Below, in pieces: positions 11,994 to 63,106 of a stretch of DNA of 64,000 bases. Both the position numbers and the translations under genes were made by a program. The notes under the pieces are model-generated. The model saw only the letters and a program-made list of their open reading frames with translations, made no database searches and was not told the DNA's origin. Origin of the DNA: Cenococcum geophilum (taxonomy: Eukaryota). The DNA lies in assembly GCA_050273025.1 (NCBI GenBank), contig CP158635.1:18042001-18106000 (forward strand). Direction: 5' to 3'. Within the stretch, counting starts at the first letter, position 1. Each line of letters opens with the position of its first letter.

Positions 11994-12680
11994 TAGGTAA
12001 ATAAGAAGTTAATAACGTAATAATAACTAATAGAGTAGTTACCTAATAGATTAACTCTAATTATATTCTAAGATTTACTATAAAAAGAGAAACTATCTAT
12101 AAAGACTGTGTGTCCTTAAATATATAACTCCTCCCTATAGTAAAGGTTAAGTATAACGGAATCTTGTAGTAAGAACTATGGTGGGTCCTGTTAATAGGCT
12201 AGGTATATAGGTAATGCAAGTAAAGTTAATAATGTAATAATAACTGGTGGAGTAGTTGCCTAACAGATTAACTCTAATTATATTTTAAGAATTACTATAA
12301 GGAGGGACTATTTAGGTAGGGACTATAGTCCTTTAAATATATATCTTAACTCCTAAGAAATCCTTTTTATATATGATGTACGTATTATATATAAGGTACA
12401 TAAGTTTCTCCCATTTCTCTTATTCTATACATAGCACGTTATATAACTCGCTTACTATTCTTTATTATATAGTTCTACTAGTTTTATTTTAGACCGTGCC
12501 TATATTAACTAACTAGCTTCTTTTAACTCTTCTCTAAGTAGTTATAATATTATACTTAAAGCGTCTATAATACTATCTCCCTTCTTTTTATCTTTATTCT
12601 TAAAGATTTCTAATATTTCTAAGTTGTTTACTAGAGGTATAATATCTATTTAATTAATTTAGTTAATATTATTACTTATT

Positions 12681-13332
12681 ATACCTAAAGCATCTTTTTC
12701 TTTATACGCGTAATATTATACCCGCACTATTACTGCTATATTATTACTTAGTAAAATTATACTATCTCTATATTCTTATTATATGAAAGAGGGGTTAGTT
12801 TATATTATGCTAGCGAGTCTTTTATCTTAGCAACTATTCTCTTACTTAAAGTGCACTAAAGTAAATATTTATTCCTTTTATAACGTTTATTTTACTTTTA
12901 ACGCTAAGTATACGCGTCCTATAACTTTTAATAGTCTTTAAGTTTCCTAAGTAATTTATTATAGGGTCTTATGTTTAAACTATCGCTATAAAGCTAGACG
13001 GTAACCTAGCGTAGGCCCTTACTACGCTTAAGTGTTCTTAAGATATAGAATAGAAGTCCTTAGATACTTATATCGCGGCATTTACTTAGCTACTTTGTCT
13101 TAAGAAGGTACGCAAAAAGGTTTGCTTTAAGAAGTGGAAACTTATAGAATAAGGTCTATAGGAACTTAGTAATAAGAGGGCTAGTCTTCCTTTAACTAAA
13201 TGGGGGATAGCTCTAAATAGCTTAGTAGCTGTTCCTCCTAGGTCCCCCTTAGGTGACTTATTTTTTAACAATTTTTCTTTATTAATATTACCTAACCTAC
13301 TTTCTTTTAATACTCCTATACCTTTCCTATAG
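12681..13332 (+). pseudogene. Antisense ORF of Gypsy A0: spliced Zn2Cys6-like / coiled-coil protein (RIP-inactivated); exons 12681-12909 and 12965-13332
   Basis: The frame is continuous across a 55-bp (G>A)TACGC...ATAG intron. Internal stops are TAA/TAG, compatible with RIP of CAA/CAG (some possibly from CGA/CGG). De-RIPped motif is C-x2-C-x6-C-x13-C-x2-C-x8-C. The same 229-nt exon 1 occurs in A1 and A2. Confidence 0.75.
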
Positions 13333-15892
13333 CATTTTTTAGATTTTATAATAGCTTCTAGGTAGTCTTATTATAGCCTATCTACTTAACCTTATACTAT
13401 ATTTTGTTGTTAATATCCTTATAACTAACGATTTTTAAAACTTACTATTTATCTTCTTTTTGTCCTCTATACGTGTCTTCCTTATAAATTAGTAGCTTAA
13501 TATTCCTATATACTAGCTCTAGTATTATAATATACTATATAGGGTAGATCTTTATTTTAGCTAGTAGGTTTAACTTAAATATAACTAGTAAAATCTTTTT
13601 TATTATTTTAAAGGTTTTAGTCTAACGTAGTCCAACTTCTTACTTAGTCGTTAACTTTTAAAAAATTTGTATAGTAGCTATACTTTATCTCCCTCCTTAA
13701 GATCTAGTCCCTTAGATCTCTTAATATTATAGTACTTTTTTATTTTCTATTATACTATTTTAGCTGTTTCTATAAGGTCTATATAAAGATTTATTAAAGT
13801 CTTTATTCTTTACTTAGCTATGCTACTTATTTTTTTTACTTATTATAGTAATAGTAATATTCTTAGCTTATATCTATAATTTGCCTTAAATAGTAATATA
13901 CCTATTCCTTCCTATAGTATTATATTATATGCAAACTATATAATTAGTAATAGTAATACCTAATTATTTTATACGTAATTAATATAATGTTTTAGATACT
14001 GCTCTAGTGTCTAATTTAATCTTTCTATTTAATCGTCTGTTTGCGGATAATATGCGGTAAAAGTTACTGCTTAAACTCCTTATTCTGCTAAGAATACCTC
14101 CTAAAATACTACTATAAATCTTAGATCTCTATCCGATATAATTTTACTTAGTGCTCTATATTTTATAAATACTTTCTTTATATAGATTCTAGCGATATCT
14201 TCCGCTAAGATTTCTTCTATGTATGCTATAAAGTATGCCCACTTTATAAGCTTATCTACTATTACTAAGATTATATTATAATCTTATCCGGTAATAGGAT
14301 CTTTTAACTTTAGTAATTTAATAATATAGTCTTATAATATAACCTCCTATAGTCTCTCTAGTATTTTAACTAGTTATAGCCCTCTATATGGCTTATACCT
14401 TATTAGTTTTTTTTTTTAGCAATCTAAATATTCTTTAGTGACCTTTCTGGCAATCCTCTAGATTCCGTTAATAATATATTCCTCTTAAAGTCTTAATACT
14501 AAGCCTATAGCTCTATTATATCCTTAAGTTATTCCCTTATAGAAATCTTCTATAAAATGCTTTGCTATACCTTTTAGGATATATATAGCTTCTTAGTTTT
14601 TGTATATATCTATTTATAAATCTTTTAATTATACTTTTAGAATTCTTTGCGCCTAAAAGCTTTCTAATATCTTATAGATTCTTTTTAACTCATCTTCTTA
14701 AGTTATTATAATTTTTAGATAATTATATCTAATTAACCCGTCTGTATCCTTTTATAGTAAAGCCCCTAATAGCTTTTTATTATTTTATAGTTTAGCTTTT
14801 TTACTTAGAGCGTCTGCTCGTGTATTGTCTATACCCTTAGTATACTAAATCTTAAAATAGTAGTTTGTAAGTATTTCTACCTATCTAACCTATTTTTAGT
14901 TAATTTCCTTTATTATTAGAAATCCTATTAGGTTTTTATAATCCGTTTTAACTATAAATAGTTTTTCTATACCTTATAAGAATACTCTTTATTTCTTTAA
15001 TACTATAATTATACCTAATAACTCCTTATTATAGATATTATAGTTTAACTCCGGTGGTGTTATTTTTTGACTATAGTACGCTACTAGATGCTATCTATTT
15101 TTATATTTTTATATAAAGTATACTCCTAGTATAAAGTCTAATACGTCCGTTTTAATAACTGTTTTTAACTTTAGTTAGTAGATTTTAAGGATTAGTTCCT
15201 AGGTAAATAACTTCTTAAGTTCTATAAACAACTTCTTTTACTTATTTCCCTATATCTATAGTTCCTCTTTCTTTATTAATTAAGTAAATGGCTTAATATT
15301 CTTTAACTATTATACTATAAATCTCTTATAGTAATTACAAACCCCTAAAACCAATTTTAACTATATAATGTTCTTTAGTTCCTACTAATTAACTATAGCT
15401 TTAATTTTCTTTAGGTCCATACTTAACTTACTTAGCTTAATAATAAATTTAATAAAATTAGTCTTCCTTATAAAGAACTCGCATTTCTTAATTACTACTA
15501 GTATTTATTCTTTCTATAGTTTCTTTAAAACCTATTTAACGTGTTCTCTATATTCTTCCTTACTTATTAAGTAGATAATAATATTGTTAAGGTATACTAT
15601 AACAAATTTATTAAGGTGTTCTTCTAATACACTATTAATTTACTTTTAGAATGTTGCTAGTGCGTTTATAAGCCTAAATTGTATAACTAATAGTTTATAT
15701 AGTCCTTCCTTTAACCTAAAGGCTGCTTTTTATTTATTGCCTTCCTTAATTCTAATCTAATAGTACGCCTATCTTAGATCTATCTTTATAAAGATTTACG
15801 CATTACCTATTCTGTCTTAGATTTCGCTAATTAAGGGTAAAGGATACCTATCCTTTCTTATAATGCTGTTTAACTGTCTATAGTCAATATAT

Positions 15893-16085
15893 TGTCACGG
15901 AACCCCACCGTAGGGGCCTCTATAGGAGAGCCCCGTGCTCTCGCGTACACCTCGCGTATAGCTTATGTCAGCTACGCGTAGGTATATCACCTCCTTACGC
16001 CCTCGACCCTTACGATCGATCGCGCAACGTTTTGTAGACTCCTTGAATATATACGCTTTATAGCTACTGCCCCCGTCCCGTAATA
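15893..16085. mobile_element. 193-bp solo LTR in the RT domain of A0
   Basis: tgtcacgg...ccgtaata termini, TSD tatat (15888-92, 16086-90). The empty site gttaatatatagtct is seen at ~1761. Confidence 0.85.
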
Positions 16086-19000
16086 TATATAGTCTTAGTT
16101 TACCATTTTTCTTTAGTATAAATAGTACTAGATAACTTACTGATAATTATAATAGTCTAATATATCCCTTTTATAGGGTTTCTTAGATAAACTCTTTAAG
16201 TGCTTATAACTCTTTTTCTATAAGTTTATAGGTTAGAAAGAACCTTAAACTTATTCCTAGTTCTAATTCTATTTTATAGTCCTATACTATATATTCTAAC
16301 AGTATCTTGCTTTCTAGTAACTATAGCTTCTTATTATACTTATGGTATTTTTCTAGTATATAATCTAACCCTTTTTTAGTTTCTTTATATATCTGTCGGG
16401 AATAGGGCAAGCGGTTGTCACGTGTCGCCGTGGCACTAGCGTAGTGAGGAACCTTAAGTTCCTCACCTACCCCCTAATTCTAAACAATAAGCTTTATAAC
16501 TAACATTCACTGTATCTACTTAAGTAGCATTAGTAAGTTACCCTATAACACCAACACTAATTAGTAGTTAAACACACAGTTAACTATAGAATAGTAAGGT
16601 TCTTAATAGAAGAGACAGTCTCGTGTAGGGGTGCTATATATACTTATATGGAATGGATCCCGGCAATACTGTGCTACCTTAAACTTACGGAAAACTAGTA
16701 ATAGAAGTATTACTAAGTACTAGGAGATACTAAGTTGCGTCTATTATATAGAATAACCACGTTTACGAAGATTTGGTTGAGTACTTTAGGTTAGAAGTAT
16801 TACTAAACCTAAGGTCCTAAGTTAATGTCTAAAACGCGTTAAAAATAATACTCTTAACACTCTGCCACGTTCCTAGCGGCCCTACCACATCAAAATTACG
16901 TTAATAACGCGCTCTCTAGCCCTTATACTCTGTTAGCATCTAAGGTAGTTACTAGCGCGCCCTTACCTTACGATAATTTTAGCTCTACTAGACTATTAAA
17001 GTTCTACTAGCACGCTATCCCTATATTCTTAACACTCTCTACACGTTAAATAACTGTTATTATAGCGTTAACCTATCTAAAGAAGTATAAAAAAGATATT
17101 AACCTAGAGATATAGGATAGACCTATAACCGACTTTATAACCGCTAAGTAAAAGGAGCTAAATAGATTCTTATTATACCGCATAGCACACTATAAAGATA
17201 GTAAATATAATAATACCATGCTATGGTATTATATAAAGGAGGACTTTATTAAATAGATAAAGGAAATATAGGTTCCTATATATAAGGATCTCGTATAGGA
17301 CTTCTGTAACTTCCTTTAGGAGTATAAAGTATTTATCCCTATAGACGGGGGAGGTATTAGAGATAATATTTAGGAGTATATTATTAAAGCAAAAGAAGAA
17401 TATAAATAGACTCTATAAGAGATTAAGCACTAACTACGCACTATAAAGAAGCTTAACTTATAATAGAATCCAAGCAATACGCTACTAGAGACGTACTCTA
17501 GTTCTATTACTCTAGAACCCCCTACTTCGCGACTTAATAACCTTTAAACTCTCCCACAGTAAGATTAAGTACTATACTCTATTTTATCGAGCTCTATATC
17601 CCTACTACAGCCTATAATATAATCCCCACCTCCTTAATTTTAAATGCAATCTTAACCTGACCTAGCACTACTTAGAGGCATCTTAAAGTTGCTTACGGAT
17701 CTTACGAAGCTCTATTTAGACTAGGAAAAGAAGTTTAGCAGGGAGCTATATAATATCCTTAATTTAAAGCTATATATCTTCTATAACTATTACTAGAAGG
17801 TAAGACTAGAACCTAACTAATATTATAACGCTTATTCCGTTATGCTTAAAGGCCGCGCTAATACCTTCTACTATAATCGTTTAGCAGGAAAAGGGTACAA
17901 TTTTAACTATATAATATATAAATTAAGATGCTACTTTAAAACAGAAGAGAATAAGTAATAGTATATATTAGAATAGAGAGAGACTACCTTTCTAAGGATT
18001 ATTGCTATAAACCCAGGTGTTTCTTGGCTTAATTATCTTTAAAAGCTCTTTAATTAACTTTAGATAATTTAGTATGGTTTATCCGAATTATATTAAGAGG
18101 ACTTCAGCCTACGCGATTAAGTTATTAGCGCATACTAAGATATTAAAGAATATAACCTTACTCTCTTTAATCTTATAAATACTTATAAAGGAGTATATGC
18201 TTAATTAAGATCCTTTATTAGTACCACTCTACGTTCTTAAGAAGTGTAGTAATTTAACACCTAACCCTAACCTACTTTAATTAACCTAGACGATTAATAT
18301 AACTATAACTAGACTAATTAAATATATCGTGGTAGGGGATATAGTAAAGGGTATAATTAACGCCGACTATAAGGCAATTATAGAGGTCCTTATAGAGGTT
18401 CATTTTAAAGTAATCACTAAAAGAAGTGTTATATTTATAAGAAGCTAAATTGCTAGTTAACTAGGCACCCCCTTAATAGACAAAAAGAGGTATATAATAA
18501 GTTTTGCCGGAGTATAAGAAATATTAAAAACTATAAGGTTACTATAGCCTACTTTTAAAGCTTCCTAGTTTAATATAAAGGCGTAAAAGATCTTAAGGGT
18601 AAGGTTAATAAGGCCGAATAGCTCCTTATAGATATAAAAATTAAGGAGTACTTACCCAACCAATACTTTACTAAGTATAGTGAGGTAGATAGTATATAAA
18701 CCATTACTATTCTTAATAACTAATCTACGCTCTATTTTACTATAAAGTTAGATATCTTTAATAAGCCAAGGGAAAGTTCCGCGTTCTCCTTTAATAATAA
18801 ATACTTAGCGAACGTCTTTTATAGTATTATGCCAGATACCGGAGCCGCAGGAGTATCTATAGTAGGAGAACCTTAAGTTCGAGCCCTTTAGCAGCTTAAT
18901 AGCTCTATTTAGATTAACTATTTAATGGTAGGCTAATACACGATTTGTTTTAGTAAGGGTACTATAATCTCTCTTAGCATAATTAGGGTCTAAACCCCCT

Positions 19001-28200: not shown

Positions 28201-31200
28201 ACCGGCTTACCAGCTTAGCCGTTATAGCCTTTTACTTAAACAGGCTTCTCTAGTTAGGTAGCTTTTATATTTAGAAACTTAGCAACATTATTTATATAGG
28301 CAGTATTTATAAAGGCAAAGCCGTTTACTCTAGTGTTAATAAGGGCGCTTGTATTAACTCCATATCTATTTTAAGATACTATATATAGAACTATAAAGTA
28401 TTTTCTACCCATTAACTGACTTAGATTAATCTCTTTAAGATTAATAGGATACCCTAGGGGGGAGTTTTTCCCTAGGGTTCCTCTTTTCCCGACTTATTAA
28501 ACGTTTCTCCTTTCTCTATCTCCTTAATATTGCCTATATCCTTTAGCTTTAGGTAAAATAAGGCAAAGTAACTATCCTTGTTGCAGTTATAGCAGGTAAT
28601 CATAGCAGGGTTAATTAGGGTATTACGGCGATTACTAGTTAAGGGCGTAGTACGCGGCGGGTTAGGCGAGGCTCGCGGATATATAGTAGTAACCGCTTTT
28701 AGAGTAGGGACTACAGTGGCTTATCTTCCTACTCTAGCTCCTATAGGTATAGTTAATAGGTTCTAGGGTCGCTTCTACTAATTAGGGCGGGTATTAATTC
28801 GCTTTAGTTCTAAATTTAATAATAGGCAATATGTTACGGACGCTTTAAGTATAATGTTACGACTATTTAGAGAAGAGACGGAAGAAGCTAGTTGGTTAAT
28901 TTAAGCACGGTCTAGGATAGAGCCGATAGAGCTATGTGACGAGGAATGGTAACTAAGGTCATATAATGTAATCTGTATAATCTATAGGATCTATATAATC
29001 CGTAATAGAGTAGATAAAGTACACGTATATTACGTATAAGAAGGATTTTATAGGAGTACGGTTGTGTATTTAAGGACCCTTAGTCCCTACCTAGATAGTT
29101 CCTTCCTTATAGTAATTCTTAGAATACAATTAGAGTTAATTTATTAGGCAACCACTCTACCAGTTATTATTACGTTGTTAACTTTAATTTATATTACCTA
29201 TATACCTAGCCTAATAACGAGCCTACCGTAGTACCTACTATAAGGTTCCGTTACATAATTACTACCTAGTTATAGTATTAAATATAAAAAGTTAAATAAT
29301 ATACCACCAAAAGCAGCCACTACGACGCTATTAACGGCGGTAACTACTTTAAGGTTAGGAGGCGATACTAGTATAGCAGATACTGACTTATAGCAACCTA
29401 TAACGGTTAGATAACTATAAGAGATAGTTAACTAGTTAATAACTAATAATGCGGCGCTAGAAGAAAGGGTTAATAAAATAGGAGCAGCGAAGATTAAGTT
29501 ACTATTAATTAAGAGATACTTAGGAGAGAGGTTAAAGCTTAAAGGATTTCTTATATAAATGTACTTTAAAGTTATATAGGAAGGGGTAAAGCTACTAACA
29601 CCTATAGATCGAATAGCCTACGCAGGACTATTCCTATTAGGAAGAGCACTTAAGTGGTTTAAGCTTTACCTTATAGAAATATAGGCAAATAGAATAACAA
29701 CCACTAATTAAAAGGTGCGGTTTATATTTTTAAGCTAGAAAGGGTTTATAGAGCGACTTATATAAATATTTAGAGACCTAGAGGCGGTAACTATAGCGGA
29801 AAGAAAACTCTAAGATATTATATAGTAAACCTTAGCAATTGAGTATATAATATAGTTTTAGACGTTAGCTATATAAGTTAAGTAGAATAATAAGGCGCTT
29901 ATAGCATAGTATAAGCAAGGACTTAAGGCTAAAGTCTAGGACGTGATTATCCTAATGGAAGATACGGATACCCTATAGAAACTAATAGATTAAGTAATTA
30001 AGATTAATAATTGGATCTACTAAAGGGAATAGGCTAAGAGAGGCTAGGATAGAGTTCTATAGTTATATAAGACGTAAAGTACGTAATAACTAAAGCAAAG
30101 TTAGAAATTATAGTATAGCGTAGAGCTAATAGACCTAAGTGGTACTTAAGAAGCCTATAAGAGATAGAGTAAGAAACTATAAAAACCTAAAGGTTAAGAA
30201 TCTAGTAATTATAGGATTAAGGAGCAGAGGCTAAACCAGGGATCTTAGTAGTAGAAGATATTTAGGCGGACTTTATAGCAAAGTTAGTGGTTTAAAGATA
30301 GAGCTTATATAAATTGCGGGAAATAAGGTTATTTTATAAGGGATTGCAAAGAGAGTTAGAGTTATTATACAATAAAGGGAACTAGACTAGTAGTAGAAGA
30401 TACACATATATAGAGGAATAATAGTATACTATAAGGAATAAAAGAGTGTTTAATTAGAAGTTTTGCGTTTTGTTATAATAACGCATGCCAAATTTATAAA
30501 GACGCTAAGTATGGCGTAAGCTATTAGCTATAGGAGCTAAAATCCTTAGAGTATAGGGGAACTAACGAACTAGTTCGCAGATTAGATATTAAAGATAATA
30601 ACTTTAACATAGGCGAAACACTCTATAACGATAAGGTAATATAGGTAGTTTACTAGGAATATATAGACCTTAAAGATATTATACTAAAGGTAGAGGATAA
30701 TTCTACTATAGAATAGGGAACATTAGTAGGGATTAAGACCCTACTAGATATAATATCTATCGCTTTACAAGACGTAAGAGAAGTAGGACGATAAGCTACT
30801 TTAGTACTTAATAAAGGCAAAAGGCTAAAGGCTTAAGATTCTTAAGATAAGATAAAAGATAACTAAGATTTTTAAAACGAGATAAGGTAAGCTTAAGGAC
30901 CTATAATAGACGATAACCGGTAGAGTAGAGCAATAGCTTAGTTTAAAGATATATAAATAAGCTCGGGATAGAGTTTCCTATAGGTATAAGACTTTTAAGA
31001 TAAAATAAGTAAGATTTAAGACTCTTAAGATGAGATAAGAATATCTAAGCCTAGTTGGACTAAGGTAGGAGCTAAGCTTAAGTTAGAAGCAAGCTTAAGA
31101 TTAAAGAATCTAAGGGACTAGGAATTTAGAGCACGAATAAGGACACCTATAAGGAAGAGGTAAGAGGCTTCCTTATAGATTAGAGAATCTATAGTATAAA

Positions 31201-32973: not shown

Positions 32974-34695
32974 TAGTAGTATCGCTTAAGGGGTATATAT
33001 AGAGTATTGCTTTAGGGGGGGTATCCCGCCAGGAACCTAATAGGACGATTAGGAAATACTGGTTTCCTATTAAGAGCCTGTTAAGACGATTAAAAAATAC
33101 TAGTTTTCTATTAAAAGCCTAACAGGACGATTAGGAAAATCGAAGATCCTAGTAGGAGCCTGTTAGGATAATTAGGACGATTAAGATCCTAGTAGGCTCC
33201 TAGCAGGAGCCTATTAAAACAACTAAAATAATTAGGAAAATTAAAATCCTAGCAGGAGGCCTCTAGGATCTTAGCACCCTAACAAAATACTAATACTAGA
33301 AGACTTACTAGAAGAATATAGTGTTTAGCCTAAGGATTAAAAAGTTAATACTAAAATTAAGAAGTAAGATAACTTTAAGGATCTACTTATAAGACGTAAA
33401 AGGAAAGAAACTATAGAGGAATTTAGAGCAAGAATTACCTTATAGTAAGAACAGAAACTAAACAAGAGATTTAGTATACTAGGTCGTATAAGGGATAGAG
33501 TACCTATATAAAGAATCACTAATAGGCCTAAAATAGGCATATTAAGAGCTAAGTGGCTTACCAAACTAGAACAAAAAGAGGATTTAGGGGTTTTAATTAG
33601 GTTTAAAGAACAATATATAAAGGGCTGTTATAATATAGTAATAAGAAGATACTTTCTTACGGACGAATGTTACGGACGCTTTAAGTACAATGTTACGACT
33701 ACTTAGAGAAGAATTAGAAAAAGCTAGTTAGTTAATTTAGGCACAGTCCAGAATAGAGCCGGTAGAACTATATAATGAGGAATAATAACTAAGGTTATAT
33801 AATATAATCTATATAATCTATAGGATCTATATAATCCGTAATAGAGCAGATAAAGCATACGTATATTATATACCAGGAGGATTTTATAGGAGTACGGTTG
33901 CGTATTTAAAGGACTACAGTCGCTATCTAGATAGTTCCTTCCTTATAGTAATTCTCGGAATATAATTAGAGTTAATCTATTAGGCAACTACTCCACCAGT
34001 TATTATTACATTATTGACTTTAACTTGCTTTACCTATATACCTAGCCTATTAATAAGCCCACTATAGTACCTACTACAAGGTTCCGTTATATAATTACTA
34101 CCTAATTACGGTAATAAGTGTAGAAAGTTAAATAATATGCCACTAAAAGCAGCCACTATAACGCCATTAATGGCGGCAACTACTTCGAGGTTAGGAGGAG
34201 ATACTAGTATAGCGGACACTAACTTTTAATAACCTATAACGGTCGGATAATTATAAAAGATAGTTGACTAATTAATAGCAAACAACGTAGTAATAGAAGA
34301 AAGGGTTAATAGGATAGGTGCGGTAAGGATTAAGTTACTATTAATTAAAAGATACTTAGGGGAAAGATTAAAGCTTAAAGGATTCCTTATATAAATACAC
34401 TTTAAGGTTATATAAGAAGGAGCTAAGCTACTAACACTTATAGATTAAATAGCCTATATAGGACTATTCCTATTAGGAAGAGTACTTAAGTAGTTTAAGC
34501 CTTACCTTATAGAGATATAGGTAAATAGAATAACAACTACTAACTAAGAGGTGCGGTTTATATTCTTAAGCTAGAAAGGGTTTATAGAGCGACTTACATA
34601 AATATTTAGAGACCTAGAGGTAGTAACTACGGCGGAAAGAAAACTCTAGGACATTACGCAATAAACCTTAGCAATTAAGTATATAACATAGTTCC

Positions 34696-44500: not shown

Positions 44501-47500
44501 AAAGCGAAAAGCTAGTAAAATATACGGCATAGGACTATAAAATAGAATTAGAACTAGGAATAAGTCTAAAGTTCTTTCTAATCTATAAGCTTACTAAAAA
44601 AGAGGGTAGAGTATTAAAAGAGTTTATCTAGGAAAACTTATAAAAGGGATATATTAGACCATTACAGTCATTAGCAAGTTATCCAGTACTATTTATACTA
44701 AAGAAGAATAGCAAACTAAGGCTATATATTAACTACAGATAGCTAAACAGCATTACTAGAAAGAATAGGTATCCTTTACCCTTAATTAGTAAAATTTAAG
44801 ATAGGATAGGTAATGCGCAAATCTTTATAAAGATAGATCTAAGGTAGGCGTACCATTAGATTAGAATTAAGGAAAGCGATAAATAGAAGGCAGCCTTTAG
44901 GTTAAAGGAAGGACTATATAAACCATTAGTTATACAATTTAGGCTTATAAACGTACTAGTAACGTTTTAGAAGCGTATTAATAATATATTAGGAGAATAC
45001 TTAGATAAATTTATTATGGTATACCTTAATAATATTATTATCTACTTAACGACTAAGGAAGAATACGGGGAATACGTTAAATGGGTCTTAAAGAGACTAT
45101 AAGAAGAGTAGATGCTAGTAGTAATTAAGAAATACAAATTCTTTACTAAGAAGACCAATTTCGTTAGATTTATTATTAAATTAGGCCAACTTAGTATAGA
45201 TCTAAAGAAGATTAAGGCTATAGTAAATTAGTAAGAACTAGAGAACGTTATATAGTTAAGATTATTTTTAGGGTTTTGCAATTACTATAGAAGGTTTATA
45301 GCGCAATAGTTAAAGGATATTAAACTATTTATATAGCTAATAAAAAAAAAGAATTATAGGCGTGGGGAGCGGAATAGCGAGAATTATTTAAAAAGGTTAA
45401 AGAGTTGTTTACCTAGGAGCTAGTTCTTAAGATCTATTAACTAGAACTAAAGACGGTTATAGAGATAAATATATTAGACTATATACTAGGGGTATACTTT
45501 ATATAAAGGTATTAAGATAAATAGTACTTAGTGGCATATTATAGTTAAAAGATAATACTACTAGAGTTAAACTATAACATTTATAATAAGGAGTTATTAG
45601 GTATAGTTATAGTACTAAAAAAATAAAGAGTATTTTTATAAGGTATAGAGAAACTATTTATAGTTAAAACGGATTATAAAAACCTAATAGGATTCCTAAT
45701 AATAAAGGAACTTAACTAAAGATAGGTTAGATGGGTAGAGATGCTTACAGAATACCATTTTAAGATTTAGTATACTAAGGGCACAGATAATATATAAGCA
45801 GACGCTCTAAGTTAAAAAGCTGAACTATAAAATAATAAGAAGCTATTAGGGGCTTTACTATAAAAGGATATAGACGGATTAATTAGGTATAATTATCCTA
45901 AAATTATAGCAACTTAAGAAGATAATAAACTAGAAAGAATCTATAAGATACTAGAAAGCTTTTAGGAATAAAAAATTCTAAAAGTATAGCTAGAAGATTT
46001 ATAAACGGATATATACGAGAATTAAGAAGCTAGGTATATCCTAAAGAGTATAGTAGAGTATTTCGTAGAAGATTTCTATAAGGAAATAACTTAGGGATAT
46101 AATAGAGCTATAAGCTTAGTGTTAAGACTCTAAGAAGAGTATATTATTAATAGAATCTGGGGACTAGCGCGAAAAGTTATAAAAGAATATCTAGATTGCT
46201 AAAGGAATAAACTAATAAGGTATAAGCTATATAGAGGGCTATAACCTATTAAAATACTAGAGAGACTATAGGAGGTTATATTATAGGACTTTATTATTAA
46301 GTTACTAAAGTTAAGAGACCCTATTACTGGATAAGATTATAATGTAATTTTAGTAATAGTAGACAAGCTTATAAAGTGGGGATACTTTATAGCATATATA
46401 GAAGAAATATTAGTAGAAGATATTGCTAGAATCTACGTTAAAGAAGTGTTTGTAAGATATAGAGTACTAAGTAAGATTATATTAGACAGAGATCTAAGAT
46501 TTATAGCAGTATTTTAGGAGGTATTCTTAGCGGAATAAGGAGTTAGAGCAGTAACTTTTACCGTATATTATCTACAGATAGACGGTTAAATAGAAAGATT
46601 AAATTAGACACTAGAATAGTATCTAAAATACTATATTAATTACGCATAGAACAATTAGGTATTGTTATTATTAGTTATATAATTTATATATAATATAACA
46701 CCATAAGAAGAAATAGGCATATTACTATTTAAGGCAAATTACGGATATAAGCTAAGAACATTATTATTACTATAATAGGTAAAGAAAGCAAGTAGCATAG
46801 CTAAAAAAAGAATAAAGATATTACTAAATCTTTATATAGACCTTATAGAATCAGCAAAGAAAGTATAAAAGAGAATAAAAAAGTACTATAATGCTAAGAG
46901 ATCTAGGGGACTAGATTTTAAAAAGGGAGATAAAGTATAGCTACTACACAAAAATTTTAAAAGTTAATAACTAAGTAAGAAGTTAAACTACGTTAGACTA
47001 GGACCTTTTAAAATTATATAAAGGATTTCACCGATTACGTTTAAGTTAGACCTATTAGCTAAAATAAAAATCTACCCTATATAGTATATGATAATACTAG
47101 AACTAGCATACGGAAATATTAAGCCACTAATCTATAAAGCAGATATATATAGAGGATAGGAAGAAGATAAATAGTAAGTTTTAAAGATTATTAGCTATAA
47201 GGACATTAACGATAAAATATAGTATAAAGTAAAGTGGATAGGCTATACTAAGACTACCTAGGAACTACTAGAGAATTTAAAAAATGCTATAGGAAAGGTA
47301 TAGGAGTATTAGAAGAGATTAGGTTAGGTAGTATTAATAAAGAAGGATCGCTAAAGAATAAGTTACCTAAGGGGGACCTAAGAAGAGTAGTTGCTAAACT
47401 ACTTAGATCTATTTCCTTCTTAGCTAGAAGAAAGTCTATTTTCTTATTACTAAGTTCCTATAAACCCTATTTTATAAGCTTCTACTCTTTAAAACGCACC

Positions 47501-47693
47501 TTTTTATAACCCTTTTTAAGACGGATTAACTAAGCGGACGCCGCTAGATAAGACTTAAGGGCCTATTACTAAGTATTAGTAGCCTTCCGTTTAGCGTCCT
47601 AGGAACAGCGCAATTCCGCTAAAGTAATAGACAGTTTATTATTTAGCCGCGTAACAGCAGATTAAATATAAGATTTTAAGATAAATTGGTTAG

Positions 47694-47917
47694 TGTCTAT
47701 ATAAGTAGAGGTTGTAAATTGTATTACGCGCAGAGCGTATGCGGCAGGGGTCGCATGGCGTAGCGTAGGTCACCTAACTACCTACGGCCCGATAGATAGC
47801 CCGACCTTTACTACCCCTTTCTTTCTCTTTTAGTAGATGACGAAAAAAGAACACAAATGAATTAAGAACCAGTTACCTTATATTGCAATTGCAGTACCCC
47901 CTTAGGTGATACCGATA
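47694..47917. mobile_element. 224-bp solo LTR
   Basis: tgtc...gata termini, TSD gttag (47689-93, 47918-22). Absent at the homologous site in A0 and A1. Confidence 0.8.
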
Positions 47918-47936
47918 GTTAGGGAACTAGATAACT

Positions 47937-50418
47937 TTTTTTTTTTTTTTTTTTTATATCCGTTATATTATACTACGTATAATACTGCGCATGCAGCCTC
48001 TAGGCTATAGCGCTATAGTTCTATATATATAAATCCTTTTTAGGCAACTTAATATATACTAGTAGCTATGTCCTAGTAGTTTATAAATCCCTAAGCTAGG
48101 GATTTATAGCTTCCTAGTAAGATACTAGGTTGCTAATAACTATTAGGTAGTAAGAAAACGATAGGAAAATAGAAGAAAAAATTAGAATAAAATTATAAAT
48201 AATCCTAATGCCTGTCCCTGTCCTTTTTATAGTTTATTTCTGTCTTTTTACTTTCTATGGTCTATCTACTAGGACTTTAGTAGGAGTTGCCTCCTTCTAG
48301 AGATCCTTTTGCTCTTAGCCACTTCCCAGTAGCTATTTTTGTCCTACTTAAGAATAGAAAAAGCGCCCTTCTTCCTTTCTTTGTACAAAAAAGCTTCTCT
48401 AAGGAGAGAGAAGAGCCTATTTGTCTTTGCATTTCCTTTCTATCTTCCTAATGTAGTCTGCATTCTAGTAAGAGGTGCGTAGGGGTTTGTACCGTGGTAT
48501 AGTCCTTAAAGCATCTACCTTCTTTATCCTTCCCTATTGTTTTAGAGAAGGATTTAAAGAAGCCTTTTCCTAGTTTTAGTTGAAAGAAAGCTGATTATAG
48601 CTTTTTAGGATATTTATCCTTAGTGGCTTTAAAAAAGAAAGGGTAGTTTCCTTTATAGATTCTAGTATAGTGTTTTCCTTTACTTTTGTTCTGTTGCCAA
48701 TTGTTTTTCCACTGTTCTAGTATCTTTTCTCTTGCTTATTTCCCTAGGTGGGCTAGGGAAGAATAAGAAGATTGTATTTTTCTTCTAGAGAGGCCCTTTT
48801 TAGCTAGTTTATCTGCTATTTTATTTTTGTAAATTTCTAGGTGGCTAGGGACCTAATGGAAGTTAATAGAGATATTCCTGCTAGCTAGATAGGAACAGCT
48901 TTGCGTAATTTTAAAGACTAGTTCTTGCCCTCCTGTAAGAGAATTAAGCTGTAATCTCTTAATAGCCGCTTGGCTATCTATAAAGATATAAACCTGTTTC
49001 TCTTTTAGTCTTTATTGTTTTAGGTGTTCTAGGGCCCTATAGACTGCATAAAGCTCTATATCTATAATTTCCATATAGGGCCCTAGATTCCAGTTTGTTG
49101 CATATTTAATCCTATTTCTCTCTCCTATTTTGCATACGGCTGCTATATTTGATTTATTGTCTTTAGAGCTATCTGTATAGTATATATCTACTAGGTCCCA
49201 CTTTAGGGATTCTTGTAGATTTTCTACTAGTCTTAGATGTTCTTATGCAGCTTCTTCTTTACTACCCTTAGAGATAGAAAAGAAAGCGGGAATAGGAGGA
49301 GACTACGGTTTTTGCCAGTCTAGAGAGACTCTCTCTATATTCCAATTTTGGATTAGCTTCTAAACTCTAGTGGTTAGAGATAGTAGCTGTGTTTTTGGCT
49401 GTAAGAGGTACTTTATAGTAGAGTTTTTAGGGCTAGAATTAGAGCTAGAACTAGCTGCTAGTTCGTCCCTATCTTTATTAACCTCTTCTATATAGGCCTT
49501 TTTAATTGCGTAATTTTCCTTAAATTTTAGGATTCTTAATGCGTAGTTATTGTAAAGCTTTTTAAATCTAATTCTAGGGGGAGGAGTAGAAGCTTTAATC
49601 TCTATAGCTTGGCTTGGAGATCCTCTAAACGCTCCTAGAACTAGTTTTAGGGCCTTATTTTGTAGAGATTGGTACCTAGCTAGTAGGTAGTCTCTAGATT
49701 TGCTTTTCCACCAGCATTGTACTCCGTAGTCTGCTATAGTAGTAACGTAGGCTATATAAAGCTGTCGAAGGGCTTATAGGGATAGACCTCTTTATATATT
49801 GCCTAGTCTTCTAATTAAATAAAAGGCTGCTTTTGCTTTAGAGATTTTTATTTCCACATATTATTTAAAAGTAAGCTTAGAGTCTAGGAATACTCCTAAC
49901 CACCTAACTAGGGGTTTAGGGGATATTTCTACGTCTCCTAGCTTTAGCCCTTCCTCTATAGTAGTACGCTTATTATGGAAGTGTATAAGCTCTGTTTTGC
50001 CAATATTAAAGCTAATAGCAGCTTCCTTAGCTTTAGACATTAGCTCTCGCGCAATCCTCTCTAGCTTTTTGCAGTTAGATTTAGTAGAGTTTAATATAAC
50101 CGTAATTGCAAAATCGTCCATATAGCTGAGGGAGTAGGCTCCTTCTGTCTCTAGCCTACAGATATTGCGTAGATATAGTAGAAATAAGATAGGGGATATA
50201 GGCGATCCCTGTGGTATCCCTGTTTCTAGTTCTACTTTTTCTTGTATTTGCCCGTTAAAGGAGAGCTGTATCTTTCTATTACTTAGGAAAGTAGCCACCC
50301 ATTGTATAAACGCTATAGGTAGTCCTAGTTCCTTACAGATAGATAGAAGCTGGTTTTTAGAGACATGGTCAAAAGCCCCCTTTACGTCTAGGAATAACGT
50401 AGTAGCTATCCTTTGTCT
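47937..50418 (-). mobile_element. 5'-truncated LINE (Tad1-like) with RT and RNase H, poly(A) tail
   Basis: Poly-T at 47936-47955 and a 12-bp TSD aactagaYaact (47925-36, 50419-30). ORF 49861-50298 carries GIPQGSPISPILF and YMDD, and there is an RNase H YYTD(G)SK motif at ~49160-49185. Confidence 0.93.
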
Positions 50419-53400
50419 AACTAGACAACTATTAAGAGTAATAGGTCGCGTATATTTAGTATTAGAGATAAAGCGAACGTTATAAGATAAATAAATATTC
50501 GCTTTAGTGCACTCTAAGCAAGAGGATGGTTATCGCGAAAATGGGTTTACTAACGTAATATAAACTAACCCCTTTTTTACACAGCAAGAATATGGAGACG
50601 GCATAATCTTACTAAGAGATAGTATCGCAGCAATAGTACGGCTATGACGAGCAGTTAAGGAAGAAGAAATTGCTTTAGGTATAATAAGCAATAATATTAA
50701 CCAAATTAATTAGACGGATATTACACCTCTAGTAAACAACTTAGAGATATTAAGAATCTTTAAGGATAAAGATAAAGAGGAGGGAGATGGTGTTATGGAC
50801 GCTTTAAGTATAATGTTATAGCTAGTTAGAGAAGAATTAAAAGAAGCTAGTTAGTTAATTTAGGTATAGTCTAGAATAGAGCCGGTAGAACTATGTAATA
50901 AGGAATAGTAATTAAGGTTATATAATATAATCTATAGGATCTATAGGATCTATATAATCCGCGATAGAGTAGATAGAGTATATATATATTATATACTAGG
51001 AGGATTTTATAGGAGTACGGTTGCGTATTTAAAGGACCACAATCCCTACCTAGATAGTTCCTTCCTTATAATAATTCTCGGAATATAATTAGAGTTAATC
51101 TATTAGGCAACCACTCCACCAGTTATTATTACATTATTAACTTTAACTTGCTTTACCTATACACCTAGCCTATTAACGAGCCCACCGTAGTACCTACTAT
51201 AAGGTTCCGTTATAACGAACTGTATACACTCTAGTAGCTATACTAAAAGTGGTATAGGTAAAGGCATAATAATAAATAAGAAGATTTCTATATATAGTTA
51301 GACGAGAAAGTTATCTAAGACTACCTAATTATAGAGAAGGCTATAAGTTATATTAAAAGAGCCTTAATTATAACGTTAAAAGATCTAGAGGAGTAATTAG
51401 AGGACTAAAGAAGCGAGAGGTAAATTATAGTACCTATAAACGAAGTTATAACGCTTAGATTAATACGAGAAAGGTTTAAACTTAAGGATAAAGATAAGCT
51501 AAGAGTTAATCTAAGACACTAAGCATATTATATATTGGCATGGATTACGTATATAGATAATGTATATAATATATATAGAGTACTAAAAGATAAGAACCAG
51601 AAGTACCTAGTAAGGATATACTAGTTATTAGATAAGGCGAAATATTAAAATACTAGGTATATATATAGTTAGCACCTAGTAAAAATATAAGCCTAAGGGG
51701 ACTTAACGCTTTAACTAGGAAGATTCCTTACGGAAGAATGCCTAGATAAATAATAGTGGTGGGAATACCTAGAGAATATATATCTATAGTATATTAAAGA
51801 TAAAAAGCGAACTAAGTATTAGCTAAAAATAGACTAAGTATAAATAGGATTAAGTAGCTAATAGTTAGGAAAAGTAGAGGCCTACGGGACTAGAGGGAAC
51901 TAGTGGTAAAGCCTTAAACCCGTAAAGGAATTTAAGGGTAATACCTAAATCTATAAATTAAGTAGTAAGATTAATAGTTTAAAGTATTAATAGATAGTAA
52001 AGTAATAAGGAACTATATCTTATTAGCAGCAGTTAGAAGAATAGGGTTACTATATAGGAAAAAGGAGCACCCTTACCTATTAGTGATAATTTTAGGAGAT
52101 CCGATAGCCTATAGAGGAGGCATTATTAATCTTAAAACAGGACCTATTTAATTAACTATTAAAGGGAGATAGATTAAGATGTCTTTTAATATATTACTAT
52201 TAGGGAATAATAAGGCAGTACTAGGAATACTTTAGTTATAGAAATATAATCTAAAGATTAATTAGATTACAGGTTAGGTTAATATTAGAGATACTTAACG
52301 CCGTAAGATATAATAATAGACTAAGTTAGTATAGTACTAAGTTAGAGTAATATATAAAGAGACTAAGTAAGGCTTAAGTTATATACTAAAGAGATACCAT
52401 AAGTATAGTAAGAAACTATAGTTACTAGAAAGCAAGAAGCTGTTAAAATATATAGTATAGGACTATAAAATAGAATTAGAACTAGGAATAAGTCTATGGT
52501 TTTTTCTAATCTATAAGCTTACTAAAGAAGAAGGAAGAGCATTAAAAGAGTTTTCCAGGAAAACTTATAAAAGGGATATATTAAACTATCGCAGTTATTA
52601 GCGGGTTATCTAGTACTATTCGTACTAAAGAAAAATAGCAAACTAAGGCTATATATTAACTATAGGTAGCTAAATAGTATTACTAGAAAGGATAGGTATC
52701 CTTTACCCTTAATTAGCGAAATCTAAGATAGGATAGGCAATGTATAAATCTTTATAAAGATAGATCTAAAATAGGCATACTATTAGATCCGGATTAAGGA
52801 AGGCAATAAATAAAAGGCAGCCTTTAGGTTAAAGAAAGGACTATATAAACCATTAGGTATATAATTCGGGCTTATAAACGCACTAGTAACATTCTAAAAG
52901 CGTATTAATAATATATTAGGAGAATACTTGGATAAATTTATTATAGTATATCTCGATAATATTATTATCTACTTAATAACTAAGGAAGAATATGGAGAAT
53001 ACGTTAAATAGGTCTTAAAGAGACTATAGGAAAAATAGATGCTAGTAGTAATTAAGAAATATAAGTTCTTTACTAAGAAGACCAATTTTATTAGATTTAT
53101 TATTAAACTAGGCTAACTTAGCATAGATCTAAAGAAGATTAAGGCTATAGTAAATTAGTAAGAACTAGAGAATATTACGCAGTTAAGATCGTTCCTAGGG
53201 TTTTGCAATTACTATAAAAGGTTTATAGCGCAATAGTTAAAGGACATTAAATTATTTACGCGATTAATAAAGAAAGAAGAACTATAGGTATAGGGAGAGG
53301 AATAGTAGAAATTATTTAAAGAAATTAAAAGGTTATTTACCTAAGAGCTAGTTTTTAAGATCTATTAACTAGGACTAGAGACGGTTATAGAGACGGATGT

Positions 53401-54660: not shown

Positions 54661-54996
54661 GTAATAAATAGTTTATTATCTAGCTATATAGCAGTAGATT
54701 AAATATAAAACCCTAAAATAAATTAATTAAGGAACTAGACAACTATTAAGAGTAATAGGTTATATATATTTAGTATTAGAGATAAAGCAAACGTTACAGA
54801 ATAAATAAATATTTGCTTTAGTATACTCTAAATAAAAGGACAGTTATTGCGAAGATAGGTTTACTAATATAATATAAACCAGCCCCTCTTTTAAACAGCG
54901 AGAATACGGAGATAGTATAATCTTACTAAAAAATAATATTATAGTAATAATACGGACACAATAAGCAGTTAAAAAAGAGGAAATTGCTTTAGGTAT
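54661..54996 (-). pseudogene. Antisense Zn2Cys6-like ORF of A1 (exon 1 54768-54996, intron 54713-54767, exon 2 truncated by deletion)
   Basis: Same 229-nt exon and 55-nt intron with an intact TAG acceptor. TGT is retained at Cys2 and Cys6. Confidence 0.7.
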
Positions 54997-58709: not shown

Positions 58710-60705
58710 TTATTTGTATATTACTATAATATCCTAATCTAGCTTATAAAGTTAATTTTATTCTTTATTTAACTCTTTAGTTCCTTTAAGTCCTTTTAAC
58801 TCTAGCTCTTATAGCTAATAGCTTACGCCATACTTAGCGTCTTTATAAATTTAGTATATATTATTATAATAAAATGCAAAACTATTAATTAAACATTCTT
58901 TTATTCCTTATAGTATACTATTATCCCTTTATATATATATATTATCTACTAGTCTAGTTCCTTTTATTATATAATAACTCTAACTATCTTTATAATCCCT
59001 AGCAAAGTAATTTTATTTTTTATAATTTATATAAGCTTTATCTCTAAATTACTAATTTCGCTATAAAGTTTGCCTAAATATCTTCTACTAATAAGATCCC
59101 TAATTTAGCCTTTACTCCTTAGTTCTATAATTACTTAATCCTTAACCTTTAGGTTTTTATAGTTTCTTAGTCTATCTTTTATAAGTTTCTTTAGTACCGC
59201 TTAGGTCTATTAGCTCTACGCTATACTATAGTTTTTAACTTAGCTTTAGTTATTACGTACTCTGCGCCTTATATAACTATAAAACTCTATTTTAACCTTT
59301 CTTAGTCTATTCCCTTTAGTAAATCCTATTATTAATCTTTATTGCTTAATCTATTAGTTCCCTTAGGGTATCTATATCTTTTATTAGAATAATTACGTCC
59401 TAGACTTTAGCCTTAAGTCCCTATTTATATTATGCTATAAGCGCCTTATTATTCTATTTAACCCATATAGCTAATATCTAAAACTATATTATATATTTAA
59501 TTGCTAAAGTTTATTATACTACGTTCTAAAGTTTTCTTTTTACTATAGTTATTACCTTTAGGTCTTTAAATATTTACGTAAGTTATTTTATAAACCCGCT
59601 CTAACTTAAGAATATAAACCGCACCTTCTAATTAGCGGTTGTTATACTATACTCCTATATCTCCATAAGATACGGTTTAAACTACTTAAGTACTCTTTCT
59701 ATTAAGAATAGTTCTGCGTAAGCTACTTAATCTATAAATATTCCTAGTTTTACTCCCTCCTATATAACCTTAAAGTGCATTTATATAAGGAATCCTTTAA
59801 GCTTTAATCTCTCTCCTAAGAATTATTTAATTAAAGGTAACTTAACCTTAGCTACTCCTATTCTATTAATTCTATCTTTAAGTATTCTATTATTATCTAT
59901 TAATCGATTAACTATTTCTTATAATTGTCCGACTGTAACTAGTTATAAGTTAATATCTGCTATACTAGTGTCGTTACCTAACCCTAAGGTTATTACTACC
60001 GTTAATAGCATTATTATAGCTGCTTTTAGTGGCATATTATTTAACTTCTTAATACTATAACTAGGTAGTAATTATATAACGGAACCTTATAGTAAGAACT
60101 ATAGTAGGTTCTGTTAATAGGCTAGGTATATAGGTAATATAAGTAAAGTTAATAATATAATAATAACTAGTAGAGTGGTTGTCTAATAGATTAACTCTAA
60201 TTATATTCTAAAAATTACTATAAGAAGGGACTATCTAGGTAGGGACTGTGGTCCTTTAAATATACATTCTAACTCCTAAGAAATCCTTCTTATATGTAAT
60301 ATACGTGTTATATATAAGGTACGTAAGTTCCTCCCATTTCTCTTATTTTACACATAGCACGTTATATAACTCGCTTACTATTCTTCATTATATAGTTCTA
60401 CCAGTTCCATCCTAGACTATGCCTATATTAACTAACTAGCTTCTTTCAACTCTTCTCTAAGTAGTCGTAATATCGTACTTAAAGCGTCCGTAACATTAAG
60501 TACATTAGTACGTTAGTACGTTAGTACGTCGCGTTCCTATATTCCTACGTTCCTACGTTCTAAACTTGTAACGTGACTAGCCATGTGACTCAGCTACCCC
60601 TTATCCCATAGCTTAATTGGTTCCAGCGCCTCCCGTGCTATCTTAACTAACCCGTTTATGTCCATTCTCAGTAGTCGCACTACTGCCGATATAAGGTCCG
60701 TAACA

Positions 60706-61510
60706 CTTATAGCAGATAATTAGCGGCAAGTTTAGAAGCTCCTTTAAGATATAATTACTAATATATGTAATAAGCGCTTTTAGCTCTTAACTAATACCGT
60801 TATAAATCTTATAACTAAAAACAAGCTATTATAATATTGCGTTAATAGGCTTACCGAAGCTCTATATAATAAGAAGACGCGCCGTTAGGGCAAGCCTTTA
60901 TTTACCCAGCTTACTCCTCTAGAGTAGAGTAAGGCTACCTTTTACAGCCCTAAGAAGATTTGGCAAGTTTAAGAGCTTTAAGCTAAGTAAGAGTAGGCTA
61001 AACACCAAGAATAAGCTCTTAAAGCTAAGGAGAAGCTTTAACAGCAAGCCCAAAAGAAAGAGAAGAGGCGCTTAATTAAGCAGCGAAAGTAGTAGCGGGC
61101 ATAATATAAGATATAGCGAGAGGTAGAGGCAACGGCTCTACGGCTTTAAAAACTGCAAGCTAAGGAGGCCCATGAGGCTGAGCGCCAGCTTAAGATTAAA
61201 GCTAGGAAGCTTTAAATATTAAAGAAGGCCCGAACCAAACATAGAAAGGTAGTAGTAGATGAGGATATTAATGAGATATTGGATGCGAACGAGAGTCCTA
61301 TTAAGGTCGCGCGCACAAGGTGCTCGGTTATGTTATATTCACTTTGATCGCTCCCGAAATATTTGCTGCGAAAGCTCCGAATTCGTGACATAATTATAGG
61401 AAACGATAATCATACACCCCTACCCAAACAAGCTTAGATCCTTCCACTTCAAGTTAGAATATCACGTGTGTTGCCCAAAATAACACGCGCCCATCTGAAT
61501 TAACACCTCG
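60706..61510 (+). mobile_element. 3' part of a pogo/Fot1-like DNA transposon (transposase C-terminus remnant), host of the whole nest
   Basis: De-RIPped frame ...GLTEAL(H)N(E)KTRR..GKPLF...KATFYSPKKI.. followed by a K/E/Q-rich coil, typical of fungal pogo-like transposase tails. The right end near ...gaattaacacctcg is tentative. Confidence 0.6.
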
Positions 61511-62264
61511 CATTTGCCTTACCTTCTTATCCAAGAGCCTGCGATTGTAGAATGTTGTCGCGGTCGCCCGGCTGGCTCTACGGCTGGCTCTATGAATCGC
61601 ATTAATAACTCAGCGGGAGCTCTCAGCATTCGAGCGAAATACTGGCTGCACTATCCGCGGGCGGGCGTGGGCGCGGACGCGGGCGTGCCCGTAGAGGCAG
61701 TCTACAGACGTTAAATAGAGGCAGCAGCACCTAATCTAGTTCTTACAGCGCCTCGCAGTGCACTCCGTAGTCCTACAAGTCAACTAAGCATGATCTTAAA
61801 GGTGTTATACACTTTGATTTTCGCGATTTAGGTGTAAATAAGTCAACACACGTGATATTCTATCTTGAAGTGGAAGGATCTAAGCTTGTTTGGGTAGGGA
61901 GTGTATGCGTATCAATTTGGGGGTGTATGATTATCGTTTCCCTAATTATATCCAGGACGATGTATGGATCCAGGGTCCGTGGCAAGGGATCTCAGAAGCG
62001 TGACAGTACCTCTTCATTCCACGCTCTGAAAGTTGCCTCCATCCGACGCCGCGGAGGAATCCGATGACACAAAAGCCCGGGGTGGCTGAAGAACAACTTT
62101 GTTCAGGTCTGCTAAGCCTTAAACTCACGAGTCACGCACGGTCCCCCGTATTCCGCGTCATTTGATAAGACGACTTCCAAGTATCCAAGGCAGCTCTGCG
62201 CACTTCTTGCCATCTTCTCAATCAACCCAACACTACATTGAGCTCATCTATAGCGACCTTCATA

Positions 62265-62883: not shown

Positions 62884-63106
62884 ACACAGACGCATGATAA
62901 AAGAGTAGAGCTGGACTGTAAGGAATTACTTGATTGACAAGGCTATTGGCGGCAAGTGTGAGATTATGGGGTATGGGACAAAGGCGTGACGCGGTGGGGG
63001 GCTTTTCTGATGGCTTCAGGCATAGGAACATCAACTCCAAATTCTGTAATGCACATGGCATCTGAATAGTTATTTTATGCTAGTTTTGTACGCGACTGGG
63101 CTGGCT

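Follow-up and report, generated by a model that had tools for sequence, protein, structure and literature searches.

A spliced gene on the strand opposite to pol appears to be an inherited part of a family of fungal retrotransposons, as indicated by comparing three copies of the family in a 64,000-nucleotide stretch of Cenococcum geophilum DNA (assembly GCA_050273025.1, contig CP158635.1, positions 18,042,001 to 18,106,000), which we call the window, with their relatives elsewhere. The three stretches, named A0, A1 and A2, are the 3' ends of copies of one Ty3/Gypsy chromovirus family, and these copies were killed by repeat-induced point mutation (RIP). A sequence-only reading of the window had proposed the antisense gene, and sequence relatives indicate that it is a conserved, spliced accessory gene whose start, splice donor, splice acceptor, junction codon, cysteine spacing and stop are exactly those predicted. 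Taken together, the evidence is probably best explained by RIP-killed chromovirus copies that carry a genuine antisense accessory gene of two exons, for the product of which a regulatory role can be suggested. The pol gene of A0 lies on the minus strand, as a Pfam search of 12001-19000 placed RVT_1 and RT_RNaseH in one minus frame, so the plus sign that the sequence-only reading gave to A0 refers to the strand of the proposed gene. A chromodomain-like peptide was read in A0 from 13396 downwards, and the homologous Pol proteins P0169 and P0171 had RVT_1, RT_RNaseH, Integrase_H2C2, rve, SH3_Tf2-1 and Chromo domains, which identified the carrier as a Ty3/Gypsy chromovirus.

In A0, exon 1 of the predicted gene (12681..12909, +) has 229 nt, equal to 76 codons plus 1 nt, and would encode a basic N-terminus and a six-Cys domain; its start codon is ATA (from ATG), and the frame contains two RIP stops. 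The intron (12910..12964, +) has 55 nt and reads ATACGC...TTATAG, with the donor G mutated by RIP, and the spliced frame passes through the junction codon T|GG. Exon 2 (12965..13332, +) would encode a coiled coil and a conserved hydrophobic/acidic tail, and has nine RIP stops before the true stop, TAG at 13330-13332. Copy A1 (54661..54996, -) contains exon 1 (54996-54768), the intron (54767-54713) and, before it is truncated, 51 nt from the start of exon 2 (54712 to approximately 54661). Copy A2 has the best-preserved exon 1 (50454..50682, -), with Cys 2, 4 and 5 and the second Met intact, while its exon 2 (47287..47675, -; terminal stop 47289-47287) again has nine RIP stops. The protein can no longer be encoded by any copy in the window, with 2 + 9 in-frame stops in A0, truncation of A1, and in A2 1 + 9 stops and an intron split by a LINE-type insertion (long interspersed nuclear element). 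The two-exon model at 12681-13332 (+) with its 55-nt intron, as put forward by the sequence-only reading, was reproduced in all listed coordinates and codons, and Cys codons 2, 4, 5 and 6 were TGY in at least one window copy, as it had said, with Cys codons 1 and 3 reading TAT and the start reading ATA in all three. The frame of exon 1 had one or two stops per copy; 229-nt frame windows taken across the window had 7.5 stops on average, and 5.3% of them had two or fewer. The frame of exon 2 had 8-10 stops, was not the most open frame there, and could not be distinguished from background within the window alone, so relatives were needed to establish exon 2.

The three window copies were aligned (A3), and the resulting profile was searched against a set of 1.84 billion protein representatives. 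Of these, 183 matched at E≤1e-3, including 66 at E≤1e-10, and many of the matches begin at the predicted Met. Most of the matched proteins were RIP-damaged and a few were near-intact. The near-intact P0151 and P0289 had all six Cys in the arrangement C-x2-C-x6-C-x13-C-x2-C-x8-C, followed by a long heptad-rich helix, and the conserved C-terminus was also present in P0289. Metagenome contigs contained at least 576 relatives, 80 loci of which were fetched (L001-L080); all were affected by RIP to a varying degree, with a flank GC content of 0.28-0.40, and L004 retained the ATG and all six Cys with the same spacing (x2, x6, x13, x2, x8). Each of the six Cys codons was either TGY or its RIP product TAY in 64/64 aligned copies, and nothing else was seen. 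The ATG was retained in 10 of the 22 listed copies, and the final stop was TAG in all listed variants (TAA, a RIP change, in two). Cys1, Cys3, the start ATG and the donor G, which the sequence-only reading could only deduce from RIP-type changes, were thus all recovered in relatives (P0151, P0289 and L004, with the donor GT in 12/64). The position of the gene was the same in the window and in the inspected loci, namely opposite gag-pol and between the end of integrase and the 3' long terminal repeat (LTR). An early end of the protein just after the coiled coil was considered and rejected, because that stop is the RIP product of CAA (CAA in three copies; GAA, AAA, AAG or GAG in other groups). 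One long protein among the matches, P0003 (1390 aa), contained 20 profile-matching stretches in a perfect tandem repeat of an approximately 66-aa unit; it is more like the translation of a satellite than a true relative.

The intron was examined by tblastn with P0151 as query against 81 sequences (the 80 loci and A0). Two matches were obtained in 56 of them, the second always in the +1 frame, one long match in three, and exon 1 only in 22. The three with a long match (L002, L003 and L031) were rejected as intronless copies, as the spacer is present in them and indels merge the frames. In the 64-copy alignment the spacer was 55 nt long in 56 copies, 61 in three, 124, 127 or 130 in four, and 54 in one degenerate copy; it started with GT in 12/64 and with AT in 51/64, a TG to TA change typical of RIP, and ended with TAG in 61/64 and TAA in 3/64. 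Six open reading frames (ORFs) read across the junction with a Trp from T|GG (P0151, P0289, P0291, P0294, P0295 and P0297), which bore out the junction codon of the sequence-only reading, and P0149 crossed it likewise with one more residue. The six ORFs came from contigs of 921-1423 nt and shared 61-69% identity with P0151, while P0298 (on a 120-kb contig), P0290 and P0152 were intact forms that were not spliced. The contig of P0151 itself was absent from the DNA loci listed, which were metagenome contigs with a best identity of 71%. An antisense intron cannot be removed from sense RNA, so the colinear ORFs record splicing of an antisense transcript, whether their contigs are RNA or retro-copies. 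By homology, the open frame of P0289 extends at least about 35 nt into the LTR.

The sense strand of the same region was also found to be an ORF. The minus strand of L004 was translated in the pol frame from the end of integrase through the chromodomain and beyond, and used as a query for longer proteins. The best eight matches (P0169-P0176, 52-72% identity) covered 97-100% of the query, tail included, whereas more distant Gypsy Pols covered at most 73% of it and lacked the tail. In P0169 and P0171 the Chromo domain ended 290-292 aa before the C-terminus, and the tail beyond it contained no Pfam family. The Pol tails aligned with the minus frame of the window throughout, over exon 2, the intron, exon 1, the polypurine tract (as an acidic run) and approximately 40 codons into the 3' LTR, and their C-terminal motif was conserved across the eight homologues. 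In A0 this C-terminal extension past the chromodomain (12452..13329, -) is degraded by RIP and lies over the whole antisense gene; the frame ends with TAG+TAA at 12457-12452, and the Pol stop TAA (12454-12452) is inside the LTR, matching the ends of the homologues. The chromodomain end of Pol in A0 is at approximately 13290..13450 (-), where the peptide read from 13396 corresponds to the Chromo (PF00385) domain of P0169 and P0171. A Pol that ends just past the chromodomain, as the 17 stops of the window copy would have it, was rejected by the intact homologues. An ORF that overlaps the polypurine tract and the LTR edge (12452-12600, -) is unusual for a Gypsy element. Since the sense frame is open over the antisense gene in intact relatives, the region appears to be doubly coding, with the sense frame open in the eight closest Pol homologues and the antisense frame open in P0289 and others. 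The sequence-only reading had placed the gene between the chromodomain and the polypurine tract; this position was right, but the minus strand there is an open Pol frame and not a non-coding spacer. The third codon positions of both frames coincide in exon 1, while the shift caused by the 55-nt spacer brings the antisense third position onto the sense second position in exon 2. The spacer lengths of 61, 124, 127 and 130 differ from 55 by multiples of 3. Evidence for a pressure to keep the sense frame open was mixed, consisting of these frame-preserving indels, the eight open tails and a modest, confounded signal in exon 2.

RIP produces transitions only, so transversions were counted for the analysis of selection. 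Transversion events were inferred by Fitch parsimony on an UPGMA (unweighted pair group method with arithmetic mean) tree of the 64 aligned copies, which formed 18 transversion clusters, and are given per site for each codon position of the sense frame (s1/s2/s3); independence of sites is assumed in the p-values, and the copies are paralogues from few assemblies. The Pol core, used as control (1500 columns, 55 copies), gave 0.31/0.17/0.57 (Kruskal p=3e-12), and the chromodomain gave 0.23/0.14/0.58 (Kruskal p=0.12). Exon 1 gave 0.47/1.10/2.88 (Kruskal p=3.6e-9), with s2 higher than s1 (p=0.003), which is the antisense order 3 > 1 > 2, and exon 2 gave 1.42/3.29/1.29 (Kruskal p=4.9e-7). The peak was therefore on the antisense third position in both exons. 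Sliding windows of 90 nt had their peak at s3 over exon 1, at s2 from the intron to the antisense stop, and at s3 again in the chromodomain. Shared wobble sites of exon 1 that are 4-fold degenerate in both frames had 4.08 events; the number fell to 0.65 where sites were 4-fold in sense and 2-fold in antisense (p=0.0003), and was 3.57 where they were 4-fold in antisense and 2-fold in sense (p=0.43). Four Cys codons fall on wobble sites that are 4-fold in sense, and zero transversions were found there in any copy. Antisense third positions of exon 2 had 2.87 events at 4-fold and 1.24 at 2-fold sites (p=0.003). Thus, the antisense codon phase is clearly under purifying selection, in the pattern expected of an antisense coding gene with two exons, and transversion phase and degeneracy both indicate that the ORF is kept by selection and not by chance. 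The sense tail showed no measurable amino-acid constraint in the exon 1 overlap, and the evidence on it is mixed overall. Mean transversions per site were approximately 1.5-2.0 in the region of the antisense gene and approximately 0.35 in the Pol core, from largely the same copies (64 and 55), which means that the accessory region diversifies several-fold faster than the Pol enzymes.

The product is predicted to be a protein of approximately 200 aa with a basic N-terminus, a six-Cys domain, a short linker, one long helix and a conserved hydrophobic/acidic C-terminus. AlphaFold2, run with alignments of 19 and 52 rows, modelled a single helix at residues 77-151 with a predicted local distance difference test score (pLDDT) of 94-99, which begins four residues past Cys6 and fits the coiled coil that had been predicted from the window. 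GAL4-type clusters have the spacing C-x2-C-x6-C-x5-12-C-x2-C-x6-8-C, and the spacing observed in P0151, P0289 and L004 (x2, x6, x13, x2, x8) has a loop one residue over that range. The nearest cluster in the ESM Atlas was a 204-aa Ascomycota family with the automatic name "Zn(2)-C6 fungal-type domain-containing protein" (score 0.90), and the Cys domain alone was nearest to a cluster with 28% DUF3716 members (score 0.76); both are leads only.

Several results weigh against this account, either against the gene itself or against the kind of protein it would encode. The Cys domain (residues 30-75) was modelled with a pLDDT of only 50-65. In Pfam, P0151 scored 13.6 bits (E 0.075) against Zn_clus (PF00172), below the cutoff of 21, and matched profile positions 18-36 of 39 only; P0289 scored 8.1 bits, and 5 of 19 members were matched at E≤10, with a best E of 0.0047. 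DUF3716 (PF12511) also stayed below its cutoff, with 15.4 bits (E 0.018) against 22 for P0290 over profile positions 3-59 of 59, and matches to 2 of the 19 members of alignment A7 (best E 0.0043). A Pfam search of the six RIP-damaged frames of 12001-19000 gave only reverse transcriptase and RNase H, and no Zn_clus. Among PDB sequences, phmmer matched only PPR1 (E 0.56, second half of the domain), profile searches of the PDB with A3 and A7 found nothing, and Foldseek against the PDB returned nothing usable (one row, E 9.3). The sequence-only reading had likened the protein to the GAL4-type binuclear clusters and had named a search against Zn_clus as one check; membership of that family could not be established, given the score under the cutoff, the half-model match and the lack of a PDB match. 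Since the thresholds of both Pfam families were missed, we term the domain Zn2Cys6-like or DUF3716-like and file it in neither family. As to the gene, every readable genomic copy was RIP-damaged and came from few assemblies, so the copies are not independent, and the contigs with spliced-form ORFs may be RNA or DNA. The 12909/12965 joint was not found in the reads or contigs of the four runs mapped, of which the sole raw-read RNA run (X21) gave 16 reads, all less than 95% alike. The first mates of these reads were all on the minus strand at 13213-13433, which means plus-strand RNA only if the library was of the usual stranded type. The family was extremely abundant in two DNA runs, and expression cannot be read from the small shares of runs X19 and X20. 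Sense wobble positions within exon 2 had 1.29 events when 4-fold and 0.76 when 2-fold (p=0.009), a modest difference that is confounded by the overlap and makes some sense constraint possible. An open sense ORF covers the entire antisense ORF, and third positions that coincide, as in exon 1, are the layout in which a shadow frame most resembles a coding one; the text of the ESM Atlas itself warns that opposite frames can score 0.9.

The last of these points leads to the reading in which only the Pol extension is a gene, the antisense frame mirrors its codons, and the intron is a chance GT...AG. The sense frame is indeed open throughout in the eight closest intact Pol homologues, the third positions of exon 1 coincide, and the splice-site dinucleotides, acceptor AG and donor GT, are parts of Leu and His codons in the sense frame. 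But the most variable position of exon 2 is the sense second position (3.29, compared with 1.42 and 1.29), a pattern that no coding sense frame would give, and the shift of phase lies exactly at the spacer, with the phase stopping at the TAG of the antisense gene. Wobble transversions were suppressed only where the antisense protein would be harmed, and seven ORFs lack precisely the spacer, so that we regard a mere shadow ORF as very improbable. Hardly any more credit can be given to an origin from a host Zn2Cys6 transcription-factor gene, a piece of which would have been captured or domesticated and would now be carried passively and without a role for the element. The weak half-domain matches to Zn_clus and PPR1 and the automatic Zn(2)-C6 name of the Atlas neighbour would fit such an origin, but no database protein outside this family of small proteins was alike, the gene was kept under selection in every examined sub-family (18 transversion clusters), and its codon-by-codon interlacing with the Pol tail would be hard to get by capture.

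Given a real gene, the question is what its protein does. We propose that an antisense mRNA would start in or near the 3' LTR and be spliced at the GT-AG intron of approximately 55 nt, that the Cys domain of its product would bind two zinc ions and the long helix would make a dimer, and that this dimeric protein may bind the LTR of the element or nearby chromatin and tune sense transcription or silencing. By analogy with known regulators, such an LTR-started spliced mRNA for a dimeric zinc-binding regulator of the element is quite possible, if short of probable. A protein that is real but is not a sequence-specific DNA-binding factor, such as a zinc adaptor, an RNA-binding or chaperone-like protein, or an anti-silencing factor that works through protein contacts, seems unlikely to us, even though the thresholds of all DNA-binding families were missed and no PDB or fold match was obtained. 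The first Cys triad also lacks the basic run known from the first halves of Gal4-type domains, and Pfam aligned the protein to the second half of the model. On the other side, the order of six Cys, short linker, long helix and acidic/hydrophobic end is that of Gal4-type factors, and among proteins of DUF3716, which was weakly matched, one is called an orthologue of a telomere-sequence-binding protein of Neurospora in PMC10776026. The fullest form of the proposed regulator, a fungal chromovirus clade with an HBZ-like system in which an LTR-started spliced mRNA encodes a dimeric, DNA-binding zinc-cluster regulator written over a Pol tail that is obliged to stay open, is conceivable but somewhat doubtful. 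If true, it would be a bidirectional dual-coding module, and regulators would have arisen convergently on the antisense strands of retroelements in three kingdoms.

The copies are situated in an AT-rich nest of retroelements that occupies the window from 1 to approximately 61000 and has strong signatures of RIP by the usual thresholds (GC 0.32, TpA/ApT 1.69, (CpA+TpG)/(ApC+GpT) 0.40). A sharp edge between this nest and normal DNA is found in 61000-64000, where the GC content of the final 2 kb is 0.54 and the indices are 0.75 and 1.31. Two intact ORFs are present there, one at 63107-63826 (-) of 239 aa, which by eye is of NAD-dependent dehydrogenase type, and one at 62434-62883 (+) of 149 aa with a hydrophobic N-terminus. 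The 3' LTR of A0 is at 12152..12575 (-), of which 12152-12565 is repeated seven times in the window, and the polypurine tract of A0 (12576..12600, -) is a purine run that doubles as Glu/Asp/Lys codons of the Pol tail. LTR copies of the same family at 28831-29253 and 33667-34091 are 4836 nt apart; the full element of A0's family is approximately 7.5 kb, judged from the contig sizes of intact relatives, so this spacing is too short for it and may mark an internally deleted copy. More solo or partial LTR copies are found at 6-283 and 60075-60488. The element within the A2 intron (47697..50418, -) is a 5'-truncated non-LTR element of 2.7 kb with RVT_1 (E 4e-18) and RNase_H (E 3.5e-6), and has an A-run near its 3' end. 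In the two genome runs, DNA contig depth fell 20- to 100-fold at 12983-13105 and 13188-13228 compared with neighbouring bins, which suggests that A0 differs from most genomic copies in these parts of exon 2.

Accessory genes of LTR retrotransposons are rare and are mostly those of plants and retroviruses, and fungal Gypsy elements are usually annotated with gag-pol only. Being small, spliced, antisense and hidden beneath the pol ORF, a gene like the present one would be missed by ORF finders and transposable-element annotators. If its product regulates the element, it would offer a direct handle on the self-control of fungal retrotransposons in genomes shaped by RIP and heterochromatin; in many fungi, elements of this kind fill the AT-rich parts of the genome. 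Dual coding on opposite strands also has a clean natural example in this region, and transversion patterns separate its two frames even in RIP-scrambled DNA where the ordinary dN/dS ratio (nonsynonymous to synonymous substitution rates) fails. It further gives a warning that long predicted "Pol tails" may be largely unconstrained read-through over another gene. No description of an antisense gene in a fungal LTR retrotransposon was found in the open-access literature that was searched.

Among known proteins, GAL4-type Zn(2)Cys(6) factors share with the predicted product two C-x2-C-x6/8-C triads, a short linker, a long helix and an acidic/hydrophobic end. They differ from it in that the present protein has only a half-domain match below the cutoff, a 13-residue loop (5-12 being known for GAL4-type factors), a length of approximately 200 aa and no middle homology region, and is encoded by a transposon. 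The ASP gene of human immunodeficiency virus 1 (HIV-1) likewise runs antisense over a retroviral sense ORF, but as far as is known it is unspliced, encodes a membrane-associated protein without a Cys domain, overlaps env and occurs in a single viral group. The closest parallel in organization is HBZ of human T-cell leukaemia virus 1 (HTLV-1), which is reportedly an antisense basic leucine zipper (bZIP) factor with a spliced main mRNA transcribed from the LTR. HBZ too lies opposite gag-pol, at the 3' end beside the 3' LTR, has a spliced main mRNA and encodes a small regulator with a dimerising helix, although a regulator role and a dimer would apply here by analogy. HBZ has a bZIP and not a six-Cys domain, is a gene of a primate retrovirus and is not placed over the pol ORF; no sequence relation to it was found, no search aimed at one having been made. 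Its transcription from the LTR is shown, while for the present gene it is only inferred. Antisense genes are encoded by the genomes of HTLV and its simian counterparts (STLV) according to PMC11963269. The same source describes antisense ORFs with a TRP28 domain in the plant Gypsy elements Retand and Grande, for which DNA binding is predicted and a regulatory role proposed (PMC11963269). These ORFs resemble the present gene in their place in a Ty3/Gypsy element, with pol on one side and the 3' LTR on the other; they sit in a POL-3'LTR region of 2.9-6.6 kb in non-chromovirus elements and carry PF04195, and the word "intron" is absent from the text of the paper (PMC11963269). In comparison, the present gene is spliced, is approximately 0.65 kb long, belongs to a fungal chromovirus and overlaps fully with an open Pol frame. 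Another transposon-borne, approximately 60-aa fungal domain is DUF3716, present in the proteins REP9-1 and REP9-2 that a Zymoseptoria tritici class II transposon carries (PMC8232023). That carrier is a DNA transposon, its genes are not described as antisense or overlapping in the available part of the source (PMC8232023), and the DUF3716 scores obtained here were below the cutoff. What is new in the present system, set beside all of these, is the fungal chromovirus host, the intron, the product with a six-Cys domain and a coiled coil, and the complete overlap with an open Pol tail.

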